A DNA stretch of 49,340 bases from Nitrospirota bacterium. GTDB taxonomy: Bacteria; Nitrospirota; UBA9217. The position numbers and the translations under genes are program-made. Of the stretch, positions 3,335 through 49,340 are shown one piece after another (positions within the stretch are counted from its first letter, which is position 1; the number at the start of each line of letters is the position of its first letter). The DNA is taken from positions 1 through 49,340 of the forward strand of contig JAOUEV010000022.1 of the NCBI GenBank assembly GCA_029858565.1. The letters run 5' to 3'. The notes beneath the pieces are model-generated. The model was not told the origin of the DNA. It did no database searches and saw nothing but the letters and a program-made list of their open reading frames with translations.

Positions 3335-4183
3335 ATGTCCATAATCCTGAGACGTTCGTGTATCGCGGTCCTGCTGTTGCTCGCTTTCCTGGCGGGCTCT
3401 CCGGCTGCCGCGGAGATCGAATGGACCGAAAAGCGAAAGCTCACGCTCGATGCGTCGCCCCTCGACATGGTTACTACGCCCAATGGCAGGTGGCTCATCG
3501 TGCTCACCCCCGGCGAAGTCCTGGTCTATTCCGCGCCTGACATGCGGGTCCTTAGCCGCTTCGGCGTGGACCCGTCCTTCGACAAGCTGCTCGTATCGGG
3601 CGACGAGCAGGTCATCCTTGCGAGCACCACGGGCAAGACCCTGAAGTTCCTTCAACTGGACGAGGTCTTTACGTTCACGAACGCGGGTGTGCCGTTCATG
3701 GGTCCGGAGAACGCGCCGGTCACGATCACCGTGTTCAGCGACTACCAATGACCATACTGTGCGCGGCTTGAGCCGCTCCTCCAGCAGTTGCTGGAGAAAT
3801 ACCCCCGGGACGTCAAGATCGTACTGAAGCAGTTCCCCCTCCCGATGCATCAGTTCGCACGAAAAGCCTCGGCCGCGGTACTGGCTGCCGACCGCCAGGG
3901 CAAGTACCGGGAGTTCAGCCATCAGCTCTTCGAGAACTTCTCCCAGCTCTCCGACGGGAAGCTCCAGGAGATCGCGAAGAAGCTCGGCCTGAACCTGGAG
4001 AAGTTCAACAAGGACCTGAACGATCATGCGATCCAGACCAGGATCAACACGGACATCACCGACGGCAACCGGGCGAATGTCCAGGGCACGCCGACGTTGT
4101 TCATCAATGGCAGGCTGGTGCGGGACCGCGGGCCCCAGATGTTCCAGGAGATCGAAGCGGAAGCGAGAAAGAAGAGACAGTAA
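3335..4183 (+). CDS. Exported DsbA/DsbG-family thioredoxin-fold selenoprotein (UxxC), UGA at 3749-3751 read as Sec
   Basis: ORFs 3335..3751 and 3788..4183 share a frame. Read-through gives APVTITVFSDYQ-U-PYCARL...VQGTPTLFINGR, a DsbA-type active site and cis-Pro motif. N-terminal signal peptide. Confidence 0.88.
3763..3776 (+). promoter_or_regulatory. Candidate bacterial SECIS hairpin
   Basis: GCGGC-TTGA-GCCGC stem-loop with G in the apical loop, starting 11 nt after the UGA. Confidence 0.65.
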
Positions 4184-4234
4184 CGGACCCTGCGGAATCC
4201 ATGTCACCACCGCAGGCGCAAGGAGCGATCAGGA

Positions 4235-4969
4235 GTGGCCCCATCAATAAAGGAGGAACTGGTTCTGGACGCCTGCCGCACCCTGTTCGGGTCGCGCGTC
4301 CGCATGGGCCGGGACTTCCTGCTCTATCTCCAGCCCGGCGGCGCGAAATCCGCCTTCCGCAGGATCGCGAAAGAGACCCATCCCGACCTCTTCACCGCCG
4401 AGGAGCCCCATGTCCAGAAACAGCAGACCGAGCGTCTTCGCCGGGTCATCGAGGCCTACGAAATGCTGAACGAGTTCTTCCGGCAGCGCGAGGATGGCCG
4501 CTGGATGCCCGCCGCGTCGTATGATGGACCCCCGCTCGACGCAGGCCGCCAGGCCGTGAAGGACCAGGACAAGCTCTATGAGGGTGCTGTTCCCGGACGC
4601 ATGCTCGAGATCGGCGAGTATCTCTACTATCGCCGCATCATTCCCTATCGAGCCCTCCGCGAGGCCCTGGACTGGCAGCGCCGCCAGCGTCCGCTCATCG
4701 GCGATATCGCCCGCCAGTGGAACTGGCTTGATGACGACCAGGTGCGGACGATCCTTCAGCACCGCGGAACGTCGCGCCGCTTCGGCGAGAGCGCGGTGCA
4801 GCTCGGCCTGCTGGAGCCGCGCCACGTGACCGCGATCCTCTGGATGCAGCGCTCGCACCAGGAACGGCTGGGCGAGTTCTTCATCCTGCGGGGGTATCTG
4901 AAGCGGGACGCTCTGGACCGCCTGCTCCAGGAGTTCCACAGCCACAACGCGCGGCACAGCAGGAACTGA
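4235..4969 (+). CDS. J-domain (HPD) protein with four C-terminal MshEN-like motifs
   Basis: KSAFRRIAKETHPDLF J-domain; four 24-aa motifs such as RLGEFFILRGYLKRDALDRLLQEF. Confidence 0.8.
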   Translation: MAPSIKEELVLDACRTLFGSRVRMGRDFLLYLQPGGAKSAFRRIAKETHPDLFTAEEPHVQKQQTERLRRVIEAYEMLNEFFRQREDGRWMPAASYDGPPLDAGRQAVKDQDKLYEGAVPGRMLEIGEYLYYRRIIPYRALREALDWQRRQRPLIGDIARQWNWLDDDQVRTILQHRGTSRRFGESAVQLGLLEPRHVTAILWMQRSHQERLGEFFILRGYLKRDALDRLLQEFHSHNARHSRN

Positions 4970-4986: not shown

Positions 4987-5679
4987 CTACTTCCTTCTCA
5001 GAAACACCACGTACGCCCCGCTGCCGCCTTTATCGCGCGGCGCGGGATGGAATTCGGCGACCGGTGCCGCGCCCGGACCGGAAAGCCAATCAGCCTCCGC
5101 TCCCTTCAGCACCGGCCCGTCCATGGAGTTGTTTCCCTTGCCGGTGATCACCAGCACCGCCTGCTGTCCCCGCGCCGCGGCATTGGCAATGAAATGCGCC
5201 AGCCGGTGAAGTGCCTCATCACGAAGACAGCCGTGCAGGTCGAGCTCTCCGCTGATCCGCAGAACACCCTTCTTCAACTGCCGCATTCTGCCCGATGCTG
5301 ACCGCGGCTCCCGTGACCCCGTTCCCTCGTCATCGTCAGGCTCAGGCCGAAACTCCGCGGTCCCGAGGTTTTGCATTGCCTGCAGGAACAGTTCCCCGCC
5401 TGACGCTTCGACGTCCCCGCGTTCCCGCGGCTTTCCGGTCTTCCGCACCAGAGATGACGTGTTTTCCTCGTCCCGCTCTCCATGAACAACAGGACGCGCG
5501 CCGGCAATGGCGCGCAGGAACAGGTCCTCGTCATCGCCCTCCTGCTGAATCGCGGGAGCCGGGGGCCGCTGTTTTGCCGGAGCTGACGGACCCTCCCGGG
5601 GAGTGAATTTCTTCAGTTCCCGAAAAGGCGTGTTCCTGAACGCGCCGGCTCCCGGTTCTTCTTTCTTTCGTTTGCTCAT
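4987..5679 (-). CDS. Smr/MutS2 C-terminal domain protein
   Basis: ELDLHG, VLVITGKGNNS and GGSGAYVVFL Smr motifs. Confidence 0.9.
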   Translation of the reverse strand: MSKRKKEEPGAGAFRNTPFRELKKFTPREGPSAPAKQRPPAPAIQQEGDDEDLFLRAIAGARPVVHGERDEENTSSLVRKTGKPRERGDVEASGGELFLQAMQNLGTAEFRPEPDDDEGTGSREPRSASGRMRQLKKGVLRISGELDLHGCLRDEALHRLAHFIANAAARGQQAVLVITGKGNNSMDGPVLKGAEADWLSGPGAAPVAEFHPAPRDKGGSGAYVVFLRRK

Positions 5680-5748: not shown

Positions 5749-6981
5749 CTAATGATCGGGGTACCGCTCGCTGATGTTGCGGATCGTGTCGATACAATCG
5801 AAGAACGTGTCCACGATCGCCGGGTCAAAGTGGGTGCCCGAGCAGGCCTTCAGCTCGTCAAGGACCTGCGACTCATCCCACTTCTCCTTGTACGCGCGTT
5901 TCGAGCTCAGGGCGTCATAGACATCGGCAAGCGCGACGATCCTGCCGAACAGCGGGATCTCGTCGCCCTTCTTGGGCCGCGGCTTTCCGTCACCCTGCTC
6001 GTATCCGGGAATGGTCTTCCCATCATAGGGATTGATATGTCCCGGATAGCCGGTACCGTCCCACTTCTCATGATGGTTGAGCGCCACGACAGCTGATGCA
6101 TCGTCGAAATCCGAGTACTGCTCGGAAAAGAGGCGGGCGCCCATCATGGAATGCAGCTTCATGGCGTCACGCTCCGCGTCATCGAGCCGTCCCGGCTTTT
6201 TCAGGATCGTGTCGGAAATGGCGACCTTGCCCACATCGTGGAGCATGGCTGCCATGCGCAGGATGTCCCGGTTCTTTTCAATGATCTCATGCGAGACGCC
6301 CTGCTTGCCTGCCCAGTGCTCGTACAGGGCGACCGAGTAGGACCCGACGCGGTTCACGTGGGCGCCGGTCTCCTTCGGGTCGCGGAGCTCGGCCATCTTG
6401 ATGGTGCGGAGGATCATGGCGCGCGTGAGCTGGGCCCGTTCGATGGCCACGGCTGCCATGTTCGCGAAATGCATGATCAGCGGCTCGTCCTTCTTGGAGA
6501 ACGGGACGACCTTTCCGCGAGAGCTCTTCTCATTGATCAGCTGCAGCACCCCGACGATGTCGCCCCGGTTCGTCCTGAGCGGGAACGTGAGCATGGACTG
6601 CGTGCGGTATCCCGAGAGATCGTCGAATTTGCGGTTGAACGAGAAGGGGAGCGTTGTGGGCAGCTTGTACACATCCTGCAAATTCAGCATGTCGCCGGTA
6701 TTGGCGACATAACCCGCGATGGTCTGATTGTTGATCGGCAGGCTGAAGGTCGAATAGATGAGCTTCTTCCCGGGGGGAAGACGCTTCTGGAGCGTGTCGT
6801 TGTGGGTATAGCTGAACTTGAGCTTGTCTTCCTCTTTCACGTAGATCGTACCCGCGTCGGCGTTGACAAGGTGACGTGCCTCGCGCAGGATCCGCTCCAG
6901 CAGCACATCGAGGTCCTTGACCTGCGTGATCTCGATGCCGAGCGTGATGATCTTGGAGAATTTCTGTTTTTCCGTGAGCAT
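5749..6981 (-). CDS. GAF + HD-GYP domain cyclic-dinucleotide phosphodiesterase
   Basis: N-terminal GAF domain; ETGAHVNRV, LHDVGK, HHEKWDGTGYP, ADVYDALSSKRAYK. Confidence 0.92.
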   Translation of the reverse strand: MLTEKQKFSKIITLGIEITQVKDLDVLLERILREARHLVNADAGTIYVKEEDKLKFSYTHNDTLQKRLPPGKKLIYSTFSLPINNQTIAGYVANTGDMLNLQDVYKLPTTLPFSFNRKFDDLSGYRTQSMLTFPLRTNRGDIVGVLQLINEKSSRGKVVPFSKKDEPLIMHFANMAAVAIERAQLTRAMILRTIKMAELRDPKETGAHVNRVGSYSVALYEHWAGKQGVSHEIIEKNRDILRMAAMLHDVGKVAISDTILKKPGRLDDAERDAMKLHSMMGARLFSEQYSDFDDASAVVALNHHEKWDGTGYPGHINPYDGKTIPGYEQGDGKPRPKKGDEIPLFGRIVALADVYDALSSKRAYKEKWDESQVLDELKACSGTHFDPAIVDTFFDCIDTIRNISERYPDH

Positions 6982-7899: not shown

Positions 7900-7977
7900 G
7901 TGCAGGGTCATATCTTACCTGCCCCTCCCCGCCTGAGTCAAGAAAAATGTTGCCGTTTCTTCCGCGCGACCCGCTGG

Positions 7978-8006
7978 TTGACAGGACCGCGCCAAAATGC
8001 TTTAAT
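7978..8006 (+). promoter_or_regulatory. sigma70-type promoter of the PilZ gene
   Basis: TTGACA-N17-TTTAAT with extended -10 TG. Confidence 0.6.
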
Positions 8007-8040
8007 GGAACAAGTTCGCCGCAAGAAAGCAGGGAAGTGC

Positions 8041-8754
8041 ATGTTCGTTAAACCGGAAGTCCTGGTGATCTGTCCCACAGCAGCAGGAAGAATGTATCTC
8101 GGTGTTCTGCTCGGCCGCATCTGGTATCAGCCTCTCCTGGCCCGGACCGTTGACGAGGCCATCCATCATGCCAACCGCTCCCGCTTCGCCGTGCAGATCC
8201 TGGACGGCGACCTTCCCCTGGAGACCTTCAAGAGCGCCATCGCGGTGATCAAAACGCACCCGCTGACAAAGACCATCCCGCTGGTGGTGTTCGCTTCCAC
8301 AACAGCCGCTCCACCCGCTGAAACGCTTCGCGCCCTGGGATGCGAATGCGTTTTACCGAAACCCGTGGACTTCTCCCTGACCTACGCGACCCTGGCCCGG
8401 CTCTCCGGCCAGACGCGGCACCAGGCGCGCGTATCGCTCCATCTGGAGGTCACTTTGGAGGAACAGCTTCCCGAAGCAATGCTGATCTGTACGAACATTT
8501 CCGAAGGCGGCATGTTCCTCCGCACACCGTCACCGCCTGCCGCGGGATCGGTCCTGCGCATCAGATTCACCCTTCCCCAGGACAACCAGCTGATCAAAGC
8601 AGCAGCGACCGTGGTCCACCGCATGCAGCTGGGAACAACGATGGAGAAGGAACCGGGAGTTGGTCTGCGGTTCTCTTCCCTAGCGGAACAGGACCTGGCG
8701 CGCATCAGGCTGTTCGTCCAGCGCCAGATCCTCGGCGATCTTCGGTGGAGCTAG
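8041..8754 (+). CDS. Degenerate receiver domain + PilZ domain protein
   Basis: REC-like N-terminus ending in PKP; PilZ motifs RHQAR (RxxxR) and NISEGG, C-terminal GVGLRF. Confidence 0.85.
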   Translation: MFVKPEVLVICPTAAGRMYLGVLLGRIWYQPLLARTVDEAIHHANRSRFAVQILDGDLPLETFKSAIAVIKTHPLTKTIPLVVFASTTAAPPAETLRALGCECVLPKPVDFSLTYATLARLSGQTRHQARVSLHLEVTLEEQLPEAMLICTNISEGGMFLRTPSPPAAGSVLRIRFTLPQDNQLIKAAATVVHRMQLGTTMEKEPGVGLRFSSLAEQDLARIRLFVQRQILGDLRWS

Positions 8755-42901: not shown

Positions 42902-43657
42902 CTACTGCTTGCTGGTGAGCGGGAACCGCGCGTTGTGGCGGCGGAGGTCAGCGGCAAGGGATTCCATTTCTTCGTGGGTAAGATGGCCGTGCTCGACAAA
43001 GTAGCGGCCCAGCTTTTTCTGCATCGTGCGCTGATAAGCCAGCAGGAGCCGGGCCTGGTAGGAAGTGAGAAAACCGAGCTGCTGCGCCCGTTCGGTGAAG
43101 AGCCGGTGAGGCCTGCCGTTGAAGGCAAGGATCGCGCGGATGGTGTTGTCGTTCAGCCAGCCCCACTGCTTCGCAATGGAGCCGACAACCGGCCGCTGCC
43201 GCATCTGCCACGCCAGGGCCTTGATCAAGGTGCGATAGGGGATGCAGCCGCGATAGTAGAGATACCTTCCGATCTCCAGCCGCCGCTCGGGCAGCACACC
43301 GCGGAACCGCCAGCCGGTGTTGTCCACATGGAACGACGGCGTCGCGGCTGCGGCAGGCGTTCTGCGGACCCGTGGGGATTTCCGGTGCCCTGTTTTGGAA
43401 CGGTCGCGATGTTCGCAGTACTTCCGGATAATATCGTAGGCGTCGTTCACGATCCGGAACTTGTCGGTGTGCTTCCGCTGGATCTCGGGATCGTGGGCCG
43501 TGAAAAGGTCGGGGTGGGTTTCCTTGGCGCGCTTGCGGAAGGCTGACTTGATGTCGCTGTGCTTCAGGCGAAGAAGGAAGTCCGGGGAGGCGCACGCGTC
43601 CGTGCCGAACAGTGTTCTGCAGGCATCAAGAATGTTCGTGTCCGGATAGGCCAGCAT
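42902..43657 (-). CDS. J-domain protein with four MshEN-like motifs (paralog of 4235..4969)
   Basis: LDACRTLFG, KSAFRKRAKETHPDLF, EIGRYLYYRG, KLGRYFVEHGHL. Confidence 0.8.
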   Translation of the reverse strand: MLAYPDTNILDACRTLFGTDACASPDFLLRLKHSDIKSAFRKRAKETHPDLFTAHDPEIQRKHTDKFRIVNDAYDIIRKYCEHRDRSKTGHRKSPRVRRTPAAAATPSFHVDNTGWRFRGVLPERRLEIGRYLYYRGCIPYRTLIKALAWQMRQRPVVGSIAKQWGWLNDNTIRAILAFNGRPHRLFTERAQQLGFLTSYQARLLLAYQRTMQKKLGRYFVEHGHLTHEEMESLAADLRRHNARFPLTSKQ

Positions 43658-45350: not shown

Positions 45351-46298
45351 TACGGTCACTATCCCAGGCATAGGGACTATGTTGATTTATTACGGCATGC
45401 AGCTGCTGCATGGTTTAAGAGCAAGTCCTACCATGCGCATTCTCGAATGAACTACTGCTTGGCTTCGTGGAGCGATTGGCACAATAACATCATTCTTGAT
45501 GAGGTTGTTCAATACATCGAACGCTGTAAAGCTGAATGCGAAGCTGGTGGGCGCCCGTTTCCTCTTCATAAATTCATTCACCACGGGCTAAGTAGTCAGG
45601 CGATGGCATTCAATCTGCTAGGTCCGCTAATTACACGTAATGACTACGCTCCCCTTGTTTCCCTCTTGTCTAATAAGAACGTCTCAATGGCATCAAGAGT
45701 CGTAGGCGCAGTGTTTGAGTATGAAGATAGAGATGTGTTTAATGAAGACGTTGGACAGCCAACATCACTTGACATAGCATTAAAAGATAGGGATGAGAAA
45801 CCTCTAATATTTATAGAGTCGAAATTGGTTGAGCAGGAATTTGGGGGCTGTTCTGTATTTGCCGCTGGTGATTGCGACGGGAGTAATCCTCAGAACCAAT
45901 TAGAGTCATGCTATTTGCATTTTATTGGGCGCAAATATTGGGGTTTAATGAATAAATATGGTTTTAATAATTTACTCTCGAATGAAAAGCAGTGCGTATT
46001 TACAAGTCACTATCAATTTTTTAGGGAAATACTTTTTAGTCTTGAGCAAAACGGCATTTTTGTGTTGCTTCATGACGAACGAAGTCCCGTTTTTAATTAT
46101 AATGTTAATGGGAAGTTCCGAGGCTTAATGCCCTATCTATTACAGTATGTTCCTACGCAGTATCGTAATAGGATAACCTCAATTAGCATTCAAGAACTTG
46201 TCGCACAAATAGAATTGCTACCAAGACACAAGGATTGGATTGATGAGTTTAAGGTGAAGTTCGGGCTGGGTGAGCTGTCCATTGAACAGAGACCATAA
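45351..46298 (+). CDS. PGN_0703-like PD-(D/E)XK putative restriction endonuclease, probably 5'-truncated
   Basis: HHGLSSQAMAFNL, PTSLD...IESKLVE, YQFFRE. The frame stays open upstream of ATG 45447 to the repeat element with no start codon. AT-rich. Confidence 0.7.
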   Translation, partial: YGHYPRHRDYVDLLRHAAAAWFKSKSYHAHSRMNYCLASWSDWHNNIILDEVVQYIERCKAECEAGGRPFPLHKFIHHGLSSQAMAFNLLGPLITRNDYAPLVSLLSNKNVSMASRVVGAVFEYEDRDVFNEDVGQPTSLDIALKDRDEKPLIFIESKLVEQEFGGCSVFAAGDCDGSNPQNQLESCYLHFIGRKYWGLMNKYGFNNLLSNEKQCVFTSHYQFFREILFSLEQNGIFVLLHDERSPVFNYNVNGKFRGLMPYLLQYVPTQYRNRITSISIQELVAQIELLPRHKDWIDEFKVKFGLGELSIEQRP

Positions 46299-48296: not shown

Positions 48297-49340
48297 GAGT
48301 CTGTAGAAAAAGTCACTTTGCTAAAGGCTCTTTCTACGTTATATCGTCTTTGCTCTGTCCTGATCGTTCGGTTTAGTGTTTCAGAAAGGTGATCTGCTGC
48401 ATTCTATCATTAATTCTTACCGCGTTGCCTTTTATTTACTGCTCTTTGCTGCCCCACTTCTTGTTCCCTATGCAAACCCCGGCCCGTATCGATGTACTTT
48501 GAGTAGATTGTGCACAATGCAGTACAGCCGCCATTGGATGTCCACTTTCTTTTTCCCTCGTAGGCCGAATCTATCCAGACCAAGACTCGATCGGATGTCA
48601 GCAAAGACAGGCTCGACCGTCGCCATCCTTCTACTATATAGCAGCTTGCCTGTCACCGAGTCTATCTTCTCCCGCATCTTCTGCGTGAAGGTCTTATCTT
48701 TCTTTTCGGTCCTGCCGGTAAAGTGGGCAAACTGGCGGGTTACAGTCACCTCGGGGTTCTTCATACACTGTGCGCGTTGAGTGCAGGGGATGCAATCGCG
48801 CTTAGTTCCGTGATACTTGATAGAGTGCAGTCCGTGATGGAAGATGTTGCTGCCGCATTTGTACATCCGTTTGCCGGCCGGGCAGATGCAGAAGCTCTTG
48901 TCGGGGCTGACGGTGAAGTCTCTCGGCTGGAAGATGATCTTCCGGTCGAAGCGCTTGGCGACTTCTTTTTTGAATCGCTCCTTATGTCTGTCCGCCTTGG
49001 CAAACCGCGGGTCACGGTGGCGAAACTTGTTGTCGGCAATATAGGCGTCGATCCCGTTCTCGATGATGAACTCCATGTTTTTCTCAGAGTGGAAACCGGT
49101 ATCTCCTGACAGCTTGGTCTTCTCGAAGACGTTTTCTTCCTTCCCGATCTCCTGAAAGTTTTTCTGGGTGCTCTCGACCATGGGTTTCAGAATCGCCGGT
49201 TCGGAGTCGCCGGTTGCTTCGGCATGGACCACGATCTGATGCTTGCTATCCACCATGGCCACGCCGTTGTACCCCTGGATCACGCCGTGGGAGGTCTTCA
49301 TTGTGGCGCTTTCGTTATCGGTGATGTTGCTCTTCCGGGG
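48297..49340 (-). mobile_element. IS1182-family insertion sequence (3' part and right end)
   Basis: Terminal sequence GAGTCTGTAGAAAAAGTC at 48297-48314 is IS1182-like; transposase upstream. Confidence 0.8.
48468..49340 (-). CDS. IS1182-family DDE transposase (5' end outside the window)
   Basis: KSNITDNESATMKTSHGVIQGYN, GDTGFHSE, CPAGK, YSRRMATVEPVF, HNLLK. Confidence 0.92.
   Translation of the reverse strand, partial: PRKSNITDNESATMKTSHGVIQGYNGVAMVDSKHQIVVHAEATGDSEPAILKPMVESTQKNFQEIGKEENVFEKTKLSGDTGFHSEKNMEFIIENGIDAYIADNKFRHRDPRFAKADRHKERFKKEVAKRFDRKIIFQPRDFTVSPDKSFCICPAGKRMYKCGSNIFHHGLHSIKYHGTKRDCIPCTQRAQCMKNPEVTVTRQFAHFTGRTEKKDKTFTQKMREKIDSVTGKLLYSRRMATVEPVFADIRSSLGLDRFGLRGKKKVDIQWRLYCIVHNLLKVHRYGPGFA

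Follow-up and report, generated by a model that had tools for sequence, protein, structure and literature searches.

The MshEN_N domain of Vibrio cholerae MshE (PDB 5HTL), which binds cyclic di-GMP (c-di-GMP), consists of two 24-residue motifs that are separated by a 5-residue spacer and fold into a four-helix bundle (Wang et al., 2016; PMC5013675). We analysed a gene whose product joins a duplicated module of this type to a J domain. The gene lies at positions 4235..4969 (plus strand) of the window, by which we mean the whole stretch of 49,340 nucleotides (nt) of Nitrospirota DNA under study (contig JAOUEV010000022.1), and encodes a protein of 244 amino acids (aa) that consists of a J domain, a linker and the duplicated MshEN_N-type module. 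We refer to its four 24-residue motifs, in order, as M1 to M4. As in MshEN_N of MshE, the glycine at motif position 3 (Gly3) and the glutamine at position 24 (Gln24) of the first motif of each pair are conserved, a profile matches in register, and the MshE domain is the best structural match. Unlike MshE, the window protein lacks MshEN_C and the ATPase, and its module is present in tandem duplicate and attached to a J domain; unlike MshEN_N of MshE, it has no Gln in the second motif of each pair and no leading Arg in M1 and M2. The C-terminal T2SSE domain that marks the secretion ATPases MshE, GspE and PilB is also absent.

Other described proteins share one or another of these features. PilF of Thermus thermophilus carries three GSPII domains, each with a C-terminal subdomain, on a pilus ATPase, and differs from the window protein in architecture; its GSPII-B domain (PDB 8PDK) is an arginine-free variant of the motif that starts with Lys or Leu and binds with nanomolar affinity (Neissner et al., 2024; PMC11731258). 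The window M2 likewise starts with Leu, whereas PilF, unlike the window protein, keeps both Gln residues. In the NfrB-type c-di-GMP-activated glycosyltransferases, MshEN_N is again a C-terminal module on an unrelated effector, but there the effector is a membrane glycosyltransferase and the module is single. CbpA, HscB, DjlA and AtcJ follow the same plan of a J domain with one dedicated targeting domain, but none of their C-terminal domains is MshEN-related. Finally, Myxococcus xanthus has the PilZ-DnaK chaperones CsdK1 and CsdK2, and PilZ proteins with DnaK or DnaJ domains are mentioned for this species too (PMC10313047; PMC8316039). The PilZ-DnaK chaperones are the only precedent that we found for second-messenger input into DnaK function. 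Like the window protein, CsdK1 and CsdK2 fuse a c-di-GMP receptor domain (here a putative one) to a component of the Hsp70 system; unlike it, they use PilZ as the receptor, and the characterised fusions are to DnaK itself. They have no sequence relation to the window protein, and the likeness is one of functional analogy.

An earlier note on this DNA, made from the sequence alone, knew of no characterised protein that joins a J domain to MshEN, and we can agree: none turned up in our searches of the full-text literature, although Supplementary Table 4 or Fig. 3b of Wang et al. (2016), which catalogue the domain architectures of MshEN proteins, may list a DnaJ fusion. The main text of that paper gives REC, HD-GYP, CheA, CheX, cyclase and Ser/Thr kinase fusions of MshEN, as well as tandem (MshEN_N)2, and no DnaJ (PMC5013675).

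The open reading frame (ORF) of the window gene comprises 244 codons and a stop; it begins with GTG, 9 nt downstream of a Shine-Dalgarno-like AAGGAG (4220..4225, plus strand) that can be read directly from the sequence. All parts of the gene described here lie on the plus strand. The J domain is divergent, spans approximately residues 5-90 (4247..4504) and, according to PF00226, fold matches and the AlphaFold2 (AF2) model, contains helix I, an inserted short helix, helix II, the HPD tripeptide and a long helix III. The HPD tripeptide itself is residues 49-51 of the translation (4379..4387). A variable, partly disordered linker follows (residues 91-124; 4505..4606), in which the predicted local distance difference test (pLDDT) score falls below 50 at residues 95-109; across 247 homologs, the distance from D51 to G127 varies between 56 and 188 residues. 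The remainder of the protein has the layout 24-5-24, 4, 24-5-24. By motif scoring and conservation, M1 (residues 125-148; 4607..4678) starts with EIG and ends with the family-invariant Gln148; it is followed by spacer 1 (residues 149-153; 4679..4693), whose R149, Q151, R152 and P153 are unusually conserved (R152 in 239 and P153 in 225 of the 247 homologs). M2 (residues 154-177; 4694..4765) starts with LIG and has Arg instead of Gln as its last residue, and a 4-residue connector (4766..4777) joins the two sequence-defined modules. M3 (residues 182-205; 4778..4849) starts with RFG, ends with Gln205 and fits the relaxed motif perfectly; spacer 2 (residues 206-210; 4850..4864) leads to M4 (residues 211-234; 4865..4936), which starts with RLG and has Phe instead of Gln at its last position. 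The C-terminus is a helix extension (4937..4966; model helix 224-240) with a conserved His-Asn pair at residues 237-238 (H237 in 241 and N238 in 242 of 247). An HPD J domain followed by four 24-aa motifs in 24-5-24 pairs had been read from the sequence before, and we find each of these elements at the position then given.

For each repeat we counted the mismatches to the relaxed motif that Wang et al. (2016; PMC5013675) give in their Methods for searches. M3 has no mismatch, M4 has one (F at the last position), M1 has two (E at position 1 and R at position 10), and M2 has three. Among 2000 shuffles of the protein, none contained two or more sites with at most one mismatch, as compared to two such sites in the real protein; thus, chance does not explain the repeats. 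The NCBIfam model NF053729 ('cyclic di-GMP-binding domain-containing protein, MshE-related', 53 positions) matches the whole protein with an E value of 2.2e-13 and 49.8 bits, against a cut-off of 38. Taken as separate segments, M1+M2 scores 28.5 bits, M3+M4 28.8 bits and M2+M3 20.4 bits, as compared to 44-78 bits for the canonical MshEN_N domains that this genome encodes. When a profile built from 43 C-terminal domains was compared with solved structures, it matched PilF of Thermus (E 9.6e-6) and MshE (E 0.016), with M3+M4 in register with MshE residues 6-60 and M1+M2 on the c-di-GMP-binding GSPII-B domain of PilF. The two pairs are an in-register duplication of one another (hhalign probability 92.8%, E 3.9e-7). 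Further matches are weak: the NfrB model aligns with residues 165-236 at E 0.011, and the best solved sequences for the single protein (phmmer against the PDB) are the CbpA J domain (E 0.019) and PilF (E 0.077). DnaJ is the sole Pfam hit, the T2SSE ATPase domain is absent, and PilZ gives no match in the window protein at E<=10.

The strict consensus has an (R/K/L)-L-G start and Gln24 in both motifs of a pair. All four motifs of the window protein have Gly3; only M1 and M3 have Gln24, and M1 starts with E. Because of these departures we classify the protein as a divergent MshEN_N homolog. The second pair had been proposed as the better candidate for binding. Its motifs do fit better (0 and 1 mismatches vs 2 and 3), but the profile scores of the two pairs are equal (28.5 vs 28.8 bits).

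The predicted fold leads to the same family. Folded alone, the C-terminal domain forms eight helices with a pLDDT of 90.9 and a predicted template modelling (pTM) score of 0.70. An exhaustive structural comparison with 48,161 representative solved chains placed GSPII/MshEN N-domains in all five top ranks. The first is MshE with c-di-GMP (5htl_B), at Z 10.4-10.6 and a root-mean-square deviation (rmsd) of 2.2-2.3 over 58 aligned residues for both AF2 models; for the isolated-domain model it is followed by 6f8l_G (Z 9.4), 8pdk_A (9.4), 2d28_C (7.7) and 7lkm_A (6.8), with the first unrelated chain at Z 6.3. The full-length model has the same outcome. In the ESM Atlas, the full-length query retrieved J-domain clusters of its own family and nothing else; with J-domain clusters excluded, the C-terminal part scored 0.75 at best, a value in the range expected by chance. 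Together, the profile matches and the rank of the MshE and PilF N-domains among solved structures bear out the previous description of the C-terminus as MshEN-like, and we regard its homology to MshEN_N as established in sequence and in predicted fold.

Sequence favours M1+M2 and M3+M4 as the units of this domain, by about 8 bits above M2+M3. Within these pairs spacing is nearly fixed, with Q148 to G156 invariant in 247/247 homologs and Q205 to G213 in 246/247. The connector between M2 and M3 is one residue shorter than canonical, and the distance from G156 to G184 is 27 residues in 228/247 homologs and 26, 28 or 30 in the other 19. A crude mean-field direct-coupling analysis of the 247 sequences yielded both M1-M2 and M2-M3 couplings, in an output dominated by alignment artefacts.

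At the other end of the protein, the full-length AF2 model (99 homologs; mean pLDDT 88.0, pTM 0.53) places the J domain at pLDDT 79-97 per block and shows the extra short helix between J helices I and II. VIA-align matched residues 8-93 of this model to more than 30 solved J-domain entries (Z 6.0-7.7); HscB is one of them (Z 7.0), and another is 5nro_B, a J domain in complex with DnaK (Z 6.1). Since Z values of this size are common for helical models, the match to the J fold counts only together with the HPD, which is intact here and conserved across the family (H in 245/247, P in 247/247 and D in 246/247 homologs). A basic helix II is also present. The genome encodes a single full DnaK (897 bits), adjoined by grpE and dnaJ, and a predicted docking of the J domain on this DnaK, described below, is graded as weak support. 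The identification of the N-terminus as a J domain therefore holds: judged from sequence and model, the domain is real, and it is probably functional.

The combination of the two parts is not peculiar to this genome. A profile search of 1.84 billion representatives (50%-identity clusters) found 5166 matches at E<=1e-3, 1371 at <=1e-10 and 595 at <=1e-30; among the 150 matches listed, nearly all are 225-320 aa long and align end to end. The 101 homologs of similar length carry only PF00226 or no domain at all and are named 'J domain-containing protein' or 'hypothetical', which is explained by the blindness of the Pfam MshEN model to the C-terminus. Named homologs come from Desulfuromonadales and other Thermodesulfobacteriota (Syntrophotalea, Pelobacter, Geoalkalibacter and metagenome-assembled genomes, or MAGs, of Geobacter) and from many Nitrospirota MAGs; one of them is Pcar_1984 (P0054) of Syntrophotalea carbinolica, a relative that can be cultivated. 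In the host phylum, 46/301 sampled genomes have a match at E<=1e-20, with 33/63 in the host family and 8/8 in another family. When the C-terminal 133 aa were used as the query, no double module without a J domain was found in proteins of 73-233 aa: there was one hit among 91 candidates, and it carries PF00226. We conclude that the architecture defines a real family.

The host genome has two copies, both inside the window. The second, a paralog of 251 aa (42905..43657, minus strand), has the same architecture and is 42% identical to the first by sequence comparison, with Thr for the motif Gly3 in its M3. It scores 30.1 bits on PF00226, above the gathering score, and 37.0 bits on NF053729, just under the cut-off of 38. 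Near the paralog are a REase-ARP / PD-(D/E)XK nuclease gene (45447-46298, plus strand) and a DDE transposase gene (48468-49301, minus strand), and mobile DNA may form part of the window at its 3' end.

Two other proteins of the same genome touch on this architecture. One, on contig C66 (locus L003, 739-2778, minus strand), is a 680-aa protein with DUF4388, a strong DnaJ match (65.4 bits) and tetratricopeptide repeats; a weak MshEN-motif match at its residues 76-121 (23.5 bits) makes it a second, different J-protein architecture with an MshEN-like stretch. The other is a 359-aa ORF (C109:25655-26203; loci L053, L054 and L056) with three tandem MshEN_N domains of 51.9-59.4 bits each. As this triple array scores above the cut-off, MshEN_N arrays without MshEN_C occur elsewhere in the organism.

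We next consider whether the C-terminal domain could bind a ligand. The residues that contact the ligand in MshE are conserved throughout the family: among 247 homologs, Gly3 is kept in 241 (G127), 247 (G156), 243 (G184) and 245 (G213), and Gln24 in 247 for M1 (Q148) and 246 for M3 (Q205). M3 matches the relaxed motif perfectly in 126/247. In MshE, the backbone at Gly3 and the following residue hydrogen-bonds guanine, binding is lost on the substitution G11L or G40I, the side chains of Gln24 touch the ribose-phosphate only, and hydrophobic positions 2, 17 and 21 form guanine-stacking clusters (PMC5013675). Studies of PilF GSPII-B report that the leading Arg is replaceable by Lys or Leu with even higher affinity, that Q190E costs ~83-fold in affinity, and that the double Gln-to-Glu mutant (Q190E + Q218E) shows no binding (PMC11731258). 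A near-invariant, exposed, polar Gln24 is hard to explain without a ligand. The organism also has a rich c-di-GMP system, with 31 GGDEF matches and 12 other MshEN_N matches above the cut-off. On balance we lean, by a modest degree, towards c-di-GMP binding by at least one site of the window protein.

Our best reading, to which we grant slightly less than an even chance, is that the window gene encodes a class-C J protein whose targeting domain is a putative duplicated MshEN_N receptor for c-di-GMP, and that occupancy of this receptor alters delivery to DnaK. The HPD loop of the N-terminal J domain would trigger ATP hydrolysis by the single DnaK of the genome. A flexible linker would join it to a compact eight-helix domain that arose by internal duplication of the MshEN_N module of 53 residues; in the MshE, PilB and PilF ATPases, this module is the four-helix unit that binds c-di-GMP. 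One or two molecules of c-di-GMP would bind this domain, and the change between liganded and unliganded states would alter the partner or client that it holds, or its self-association. If ligand state sets client holding in this way, remodelling of the client by DnaK would depend on the cellular level of c-di-GMP. The domain composition, the homology, the predicted fold and the conservation of ligand-contact residues rest on the data given above; we infer the binding of nucleotide and its stoichiometry, the partnership with DnaK and the existence of a specific client. A more elaborate proposal for this widespread Thermodesulfobacteriota/Nitrospirota family, which strikes us as doubtful, is that c-di-GMP or cyclic GMP-AMP (cGAMP) binds a rearranged double MshEN with a central M2+M3 site flanked by M1 and M4, and that the liganded surface serves as a switch or molecular glue that licenses hand-over of the client to DnaK.

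A number of observations weigh against a duplicated receptor that acts through DnaK. The 49.8 bits on NF053729 are the sum of both modules, each of which alone remains at 27-29 bits and under the 38-bit cut-off, and the Pfam MshEN model finds nothing in the window protein even at E<=10. Foldseek against the PDB returns only E values >0.001, though 5htl_A is found at a probability of 0.99 and an rmsd of 1.6 over 57 columns. In both AF2 models, every GSPII chain superposes on residues 152-209, that is, on M2+M3, which conflicts with the 24-5-24 pairs of the sequence. The motifs depart from the consensus at positions of interest: M2 is missing the Gln at position 24, which is R in 145/247 homologs (R177 here); position 24 of M4 (F234 here) varies among homologs (L, F, Q, M or H); and position 1 of M1, where MshE has a guanine-stacking Arg, is E in 92/247 homologs including the window protein and otherwise L, R, Q, K or M. 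Among the 42 related loci that we compared, no homolog was found of any of the 19 window neighbour proteins, and a PilZ or GGDEF gene lies within two ORFs in only 4/42. To these points we add two relatives that do not bind, as well as the scores of the J domain, each taken up below with the alternative on which it bears.

If the MshEN-like array no longer binds nucleotide, the protein would be a J co-chaperone in which the array serves as a protein-protein adaptor or client-binding domain, an explanation that we consider rather unlikely although much of the evidence just listed, namely the sub-threshold score of each module, the missing Gln in the second motif of each pair and the Glu at the start of M1, can be read in its favour. 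The family-specific invariant residues outside the ligand consensus (R149, Q151, R152, P153, W147, W162, W164, H237 and N238) look like a new interface. N-domains of XpsE/GspE and of Xanthomonas PilB bind partner proteins, and the top structural matches include the non-binding XpsE (2d28_C, Z 7.7) as well as the N-domain of PilB in complex with PilZ (7lkm_A, Z 6.8). XpsE has a near-consensus GSPII domain and no c-di-GMP binding (PMC5013675), and PilF GSPII-A, likewise near consensus and inert even after six residues were reverted to it, is a precedent of a non-binding domain (PMC12002112). An adaptor is less easily reconciled with the exposed Gln24 residues of M1 and M3 and the Gly3 residues, whose invariance a purely structural role explains poorly, with the perfect fit of M3 to the relaxed motif in about half of the homologs, or with the fact that the best structural matches are liganded forms.

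The ligand might instead be another cyclic dinucleotide such as 3'3'-cGAMP, which we find improbable. Signalling by cGAMP is prominent in the Desulfuromonadales-type group, in whose genomes the family is common, but the family is equally common in Nitrospirota MAGs. The asymmetric half-sites, with Gln in one motif per pair, could suit an asymmetric dinucleotide; MshEN_N does bind cGAMP, but weakly, with a Kd of 3.3e-4 M, an affinity ~660-fold weaker than that for c-di-GMP (PMC5013675). More improbable still, in our view, is a degenerate J fold that no longer works with DnaK, which would leave the protein a stand-alone nucleotide receptor or scaffold. It would account for the extra short helix between helices I and II and for the PF00226 match of residues 38-80 (E 3.4e-4), which at 21.1 bits falls short of the 27.8 bits required for gathering. 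The docking predicted for residues 1-95 on the genome's DnaK with ATP also leaves room for it: the interface score ipSAE was 0.56, as compared to 0.16 for the best of three controls, which is graded as weak support. The docking mark is passed by 116/157 solved complexes and 2/215 mismatched pairs, and at ipSAE <=0.60 by 18/157 solved complexes and both of the passing mismatches. Agreement of contacts among the J-DnaK runs was at least 95% and partner pLDDT at least 80; since J-DnaK complexes have been solved and are textbook cases, the pass may come from prior exposure of the predictor to them. A degenerate domain is difficult to square with an HPD that is kept in at least 245/247 homologs, with the basic helix II, with matches to the J fold up to Z 7.7, and with the paralog and many homologs that exceed the Pfam threshold.

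The surroundings of the gene vary between lineages. No conserved operon partner emerged from the 42-locus neighbour comparison, from de novo clustering, in which no family among 330 ORFs around the 42 loci occurred in >8 loci, or from Pfam annotation of 146 of the 150 nearest ORFs (4 large ones were left out), which revealed clade-level synteny only and no universal partner. Recurring neighbours are genes for an RlpA-like protein (7-8 Nitrospirota loci), a methyl-accepting chemotaxis protein (8), aat (5), Lon (4), an RdgC-like protein (4), ClpA (2), PilZ (2) and GGDEF (2), counts that were made without a background model and carry no claim of enrichment. In the loci of Desulfuromonadales-type MAGs (L011, L013, L023, L040 and L046), an RdgC-like gene lies 3' on the same strand in four, sometimes with a PilZ gene (L011 and L013) and a DUF815 AAA gene 5' and with aat-clpA beyond; proximity to aat-clpA, Lon or the RdgC-like gene in some loci of this type is again synteny at the level of the clade. 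In the window, a GAF + HD-GYP protein that is a candidate c-di-GMP phosphodiesterase (5749-6981, minus strand) and a PilZ-domain protein (7900-8754, plus strand) are encoded <4 kb from the J-MshEN gene; as these genes do not recur in the 42 loci, we treat their nearness as coincidental. The adjacent gene on the 3' side (4987-5679, minus strand) encodes a Smr-domain protein (70.5 bits) and is oriented towards the J-MshEN gene; 18 nt separate the two stop codons.

Directly 5' of the J-MshEN gene, a lone in-frame TGA (3749-3751) interrupts what is otherwise one open frame at 3335-4183 (plus strand). In the product, a DsbA/Thioredoxin_4 protein with a signal peptide, the TGA falls exactly where the CxxC redox motif has its first Cys, so that read-through would give U-P-Y-C. 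Read through, the product scores 95.7 bits on Thioredoxin_4 over positions 5-157/165, as compared to 52 bits for the 3' ORF alone; among NCBIfam models it comes closest to a thioredoxin-like (seleno)lipoprotein family, with a score under the cut-off. A GC hairpin begins 14 nt past the TGA, with a z of only -1.85, and the genome encodes a SelB-wing_3 protein. The product of 3335-4183 is a candidate selenoprotein.

The enzymes that synthesise and degrade c-di-GMP greatly outnumber its receptors, and J-domain proteins determine where and on what Hsp70 acts. If the targeting domain of a J protein is itself a c-di-GMP receptor, biofilm and motility signalling would be linked directly to protein remodelling, a connection of which the Myxococcus PilZ-DnaK chaperones are as yet the only hint. 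The window gene belongs to a large family, of at least 595 clusters, whose MshEN part escapes Pfam-based annotation. Through J-MshEN proteins of this family a second messenger may steer the DnaK chaperone; if so, they would be second-messenger-gated co-chaperones of a kind not described before.

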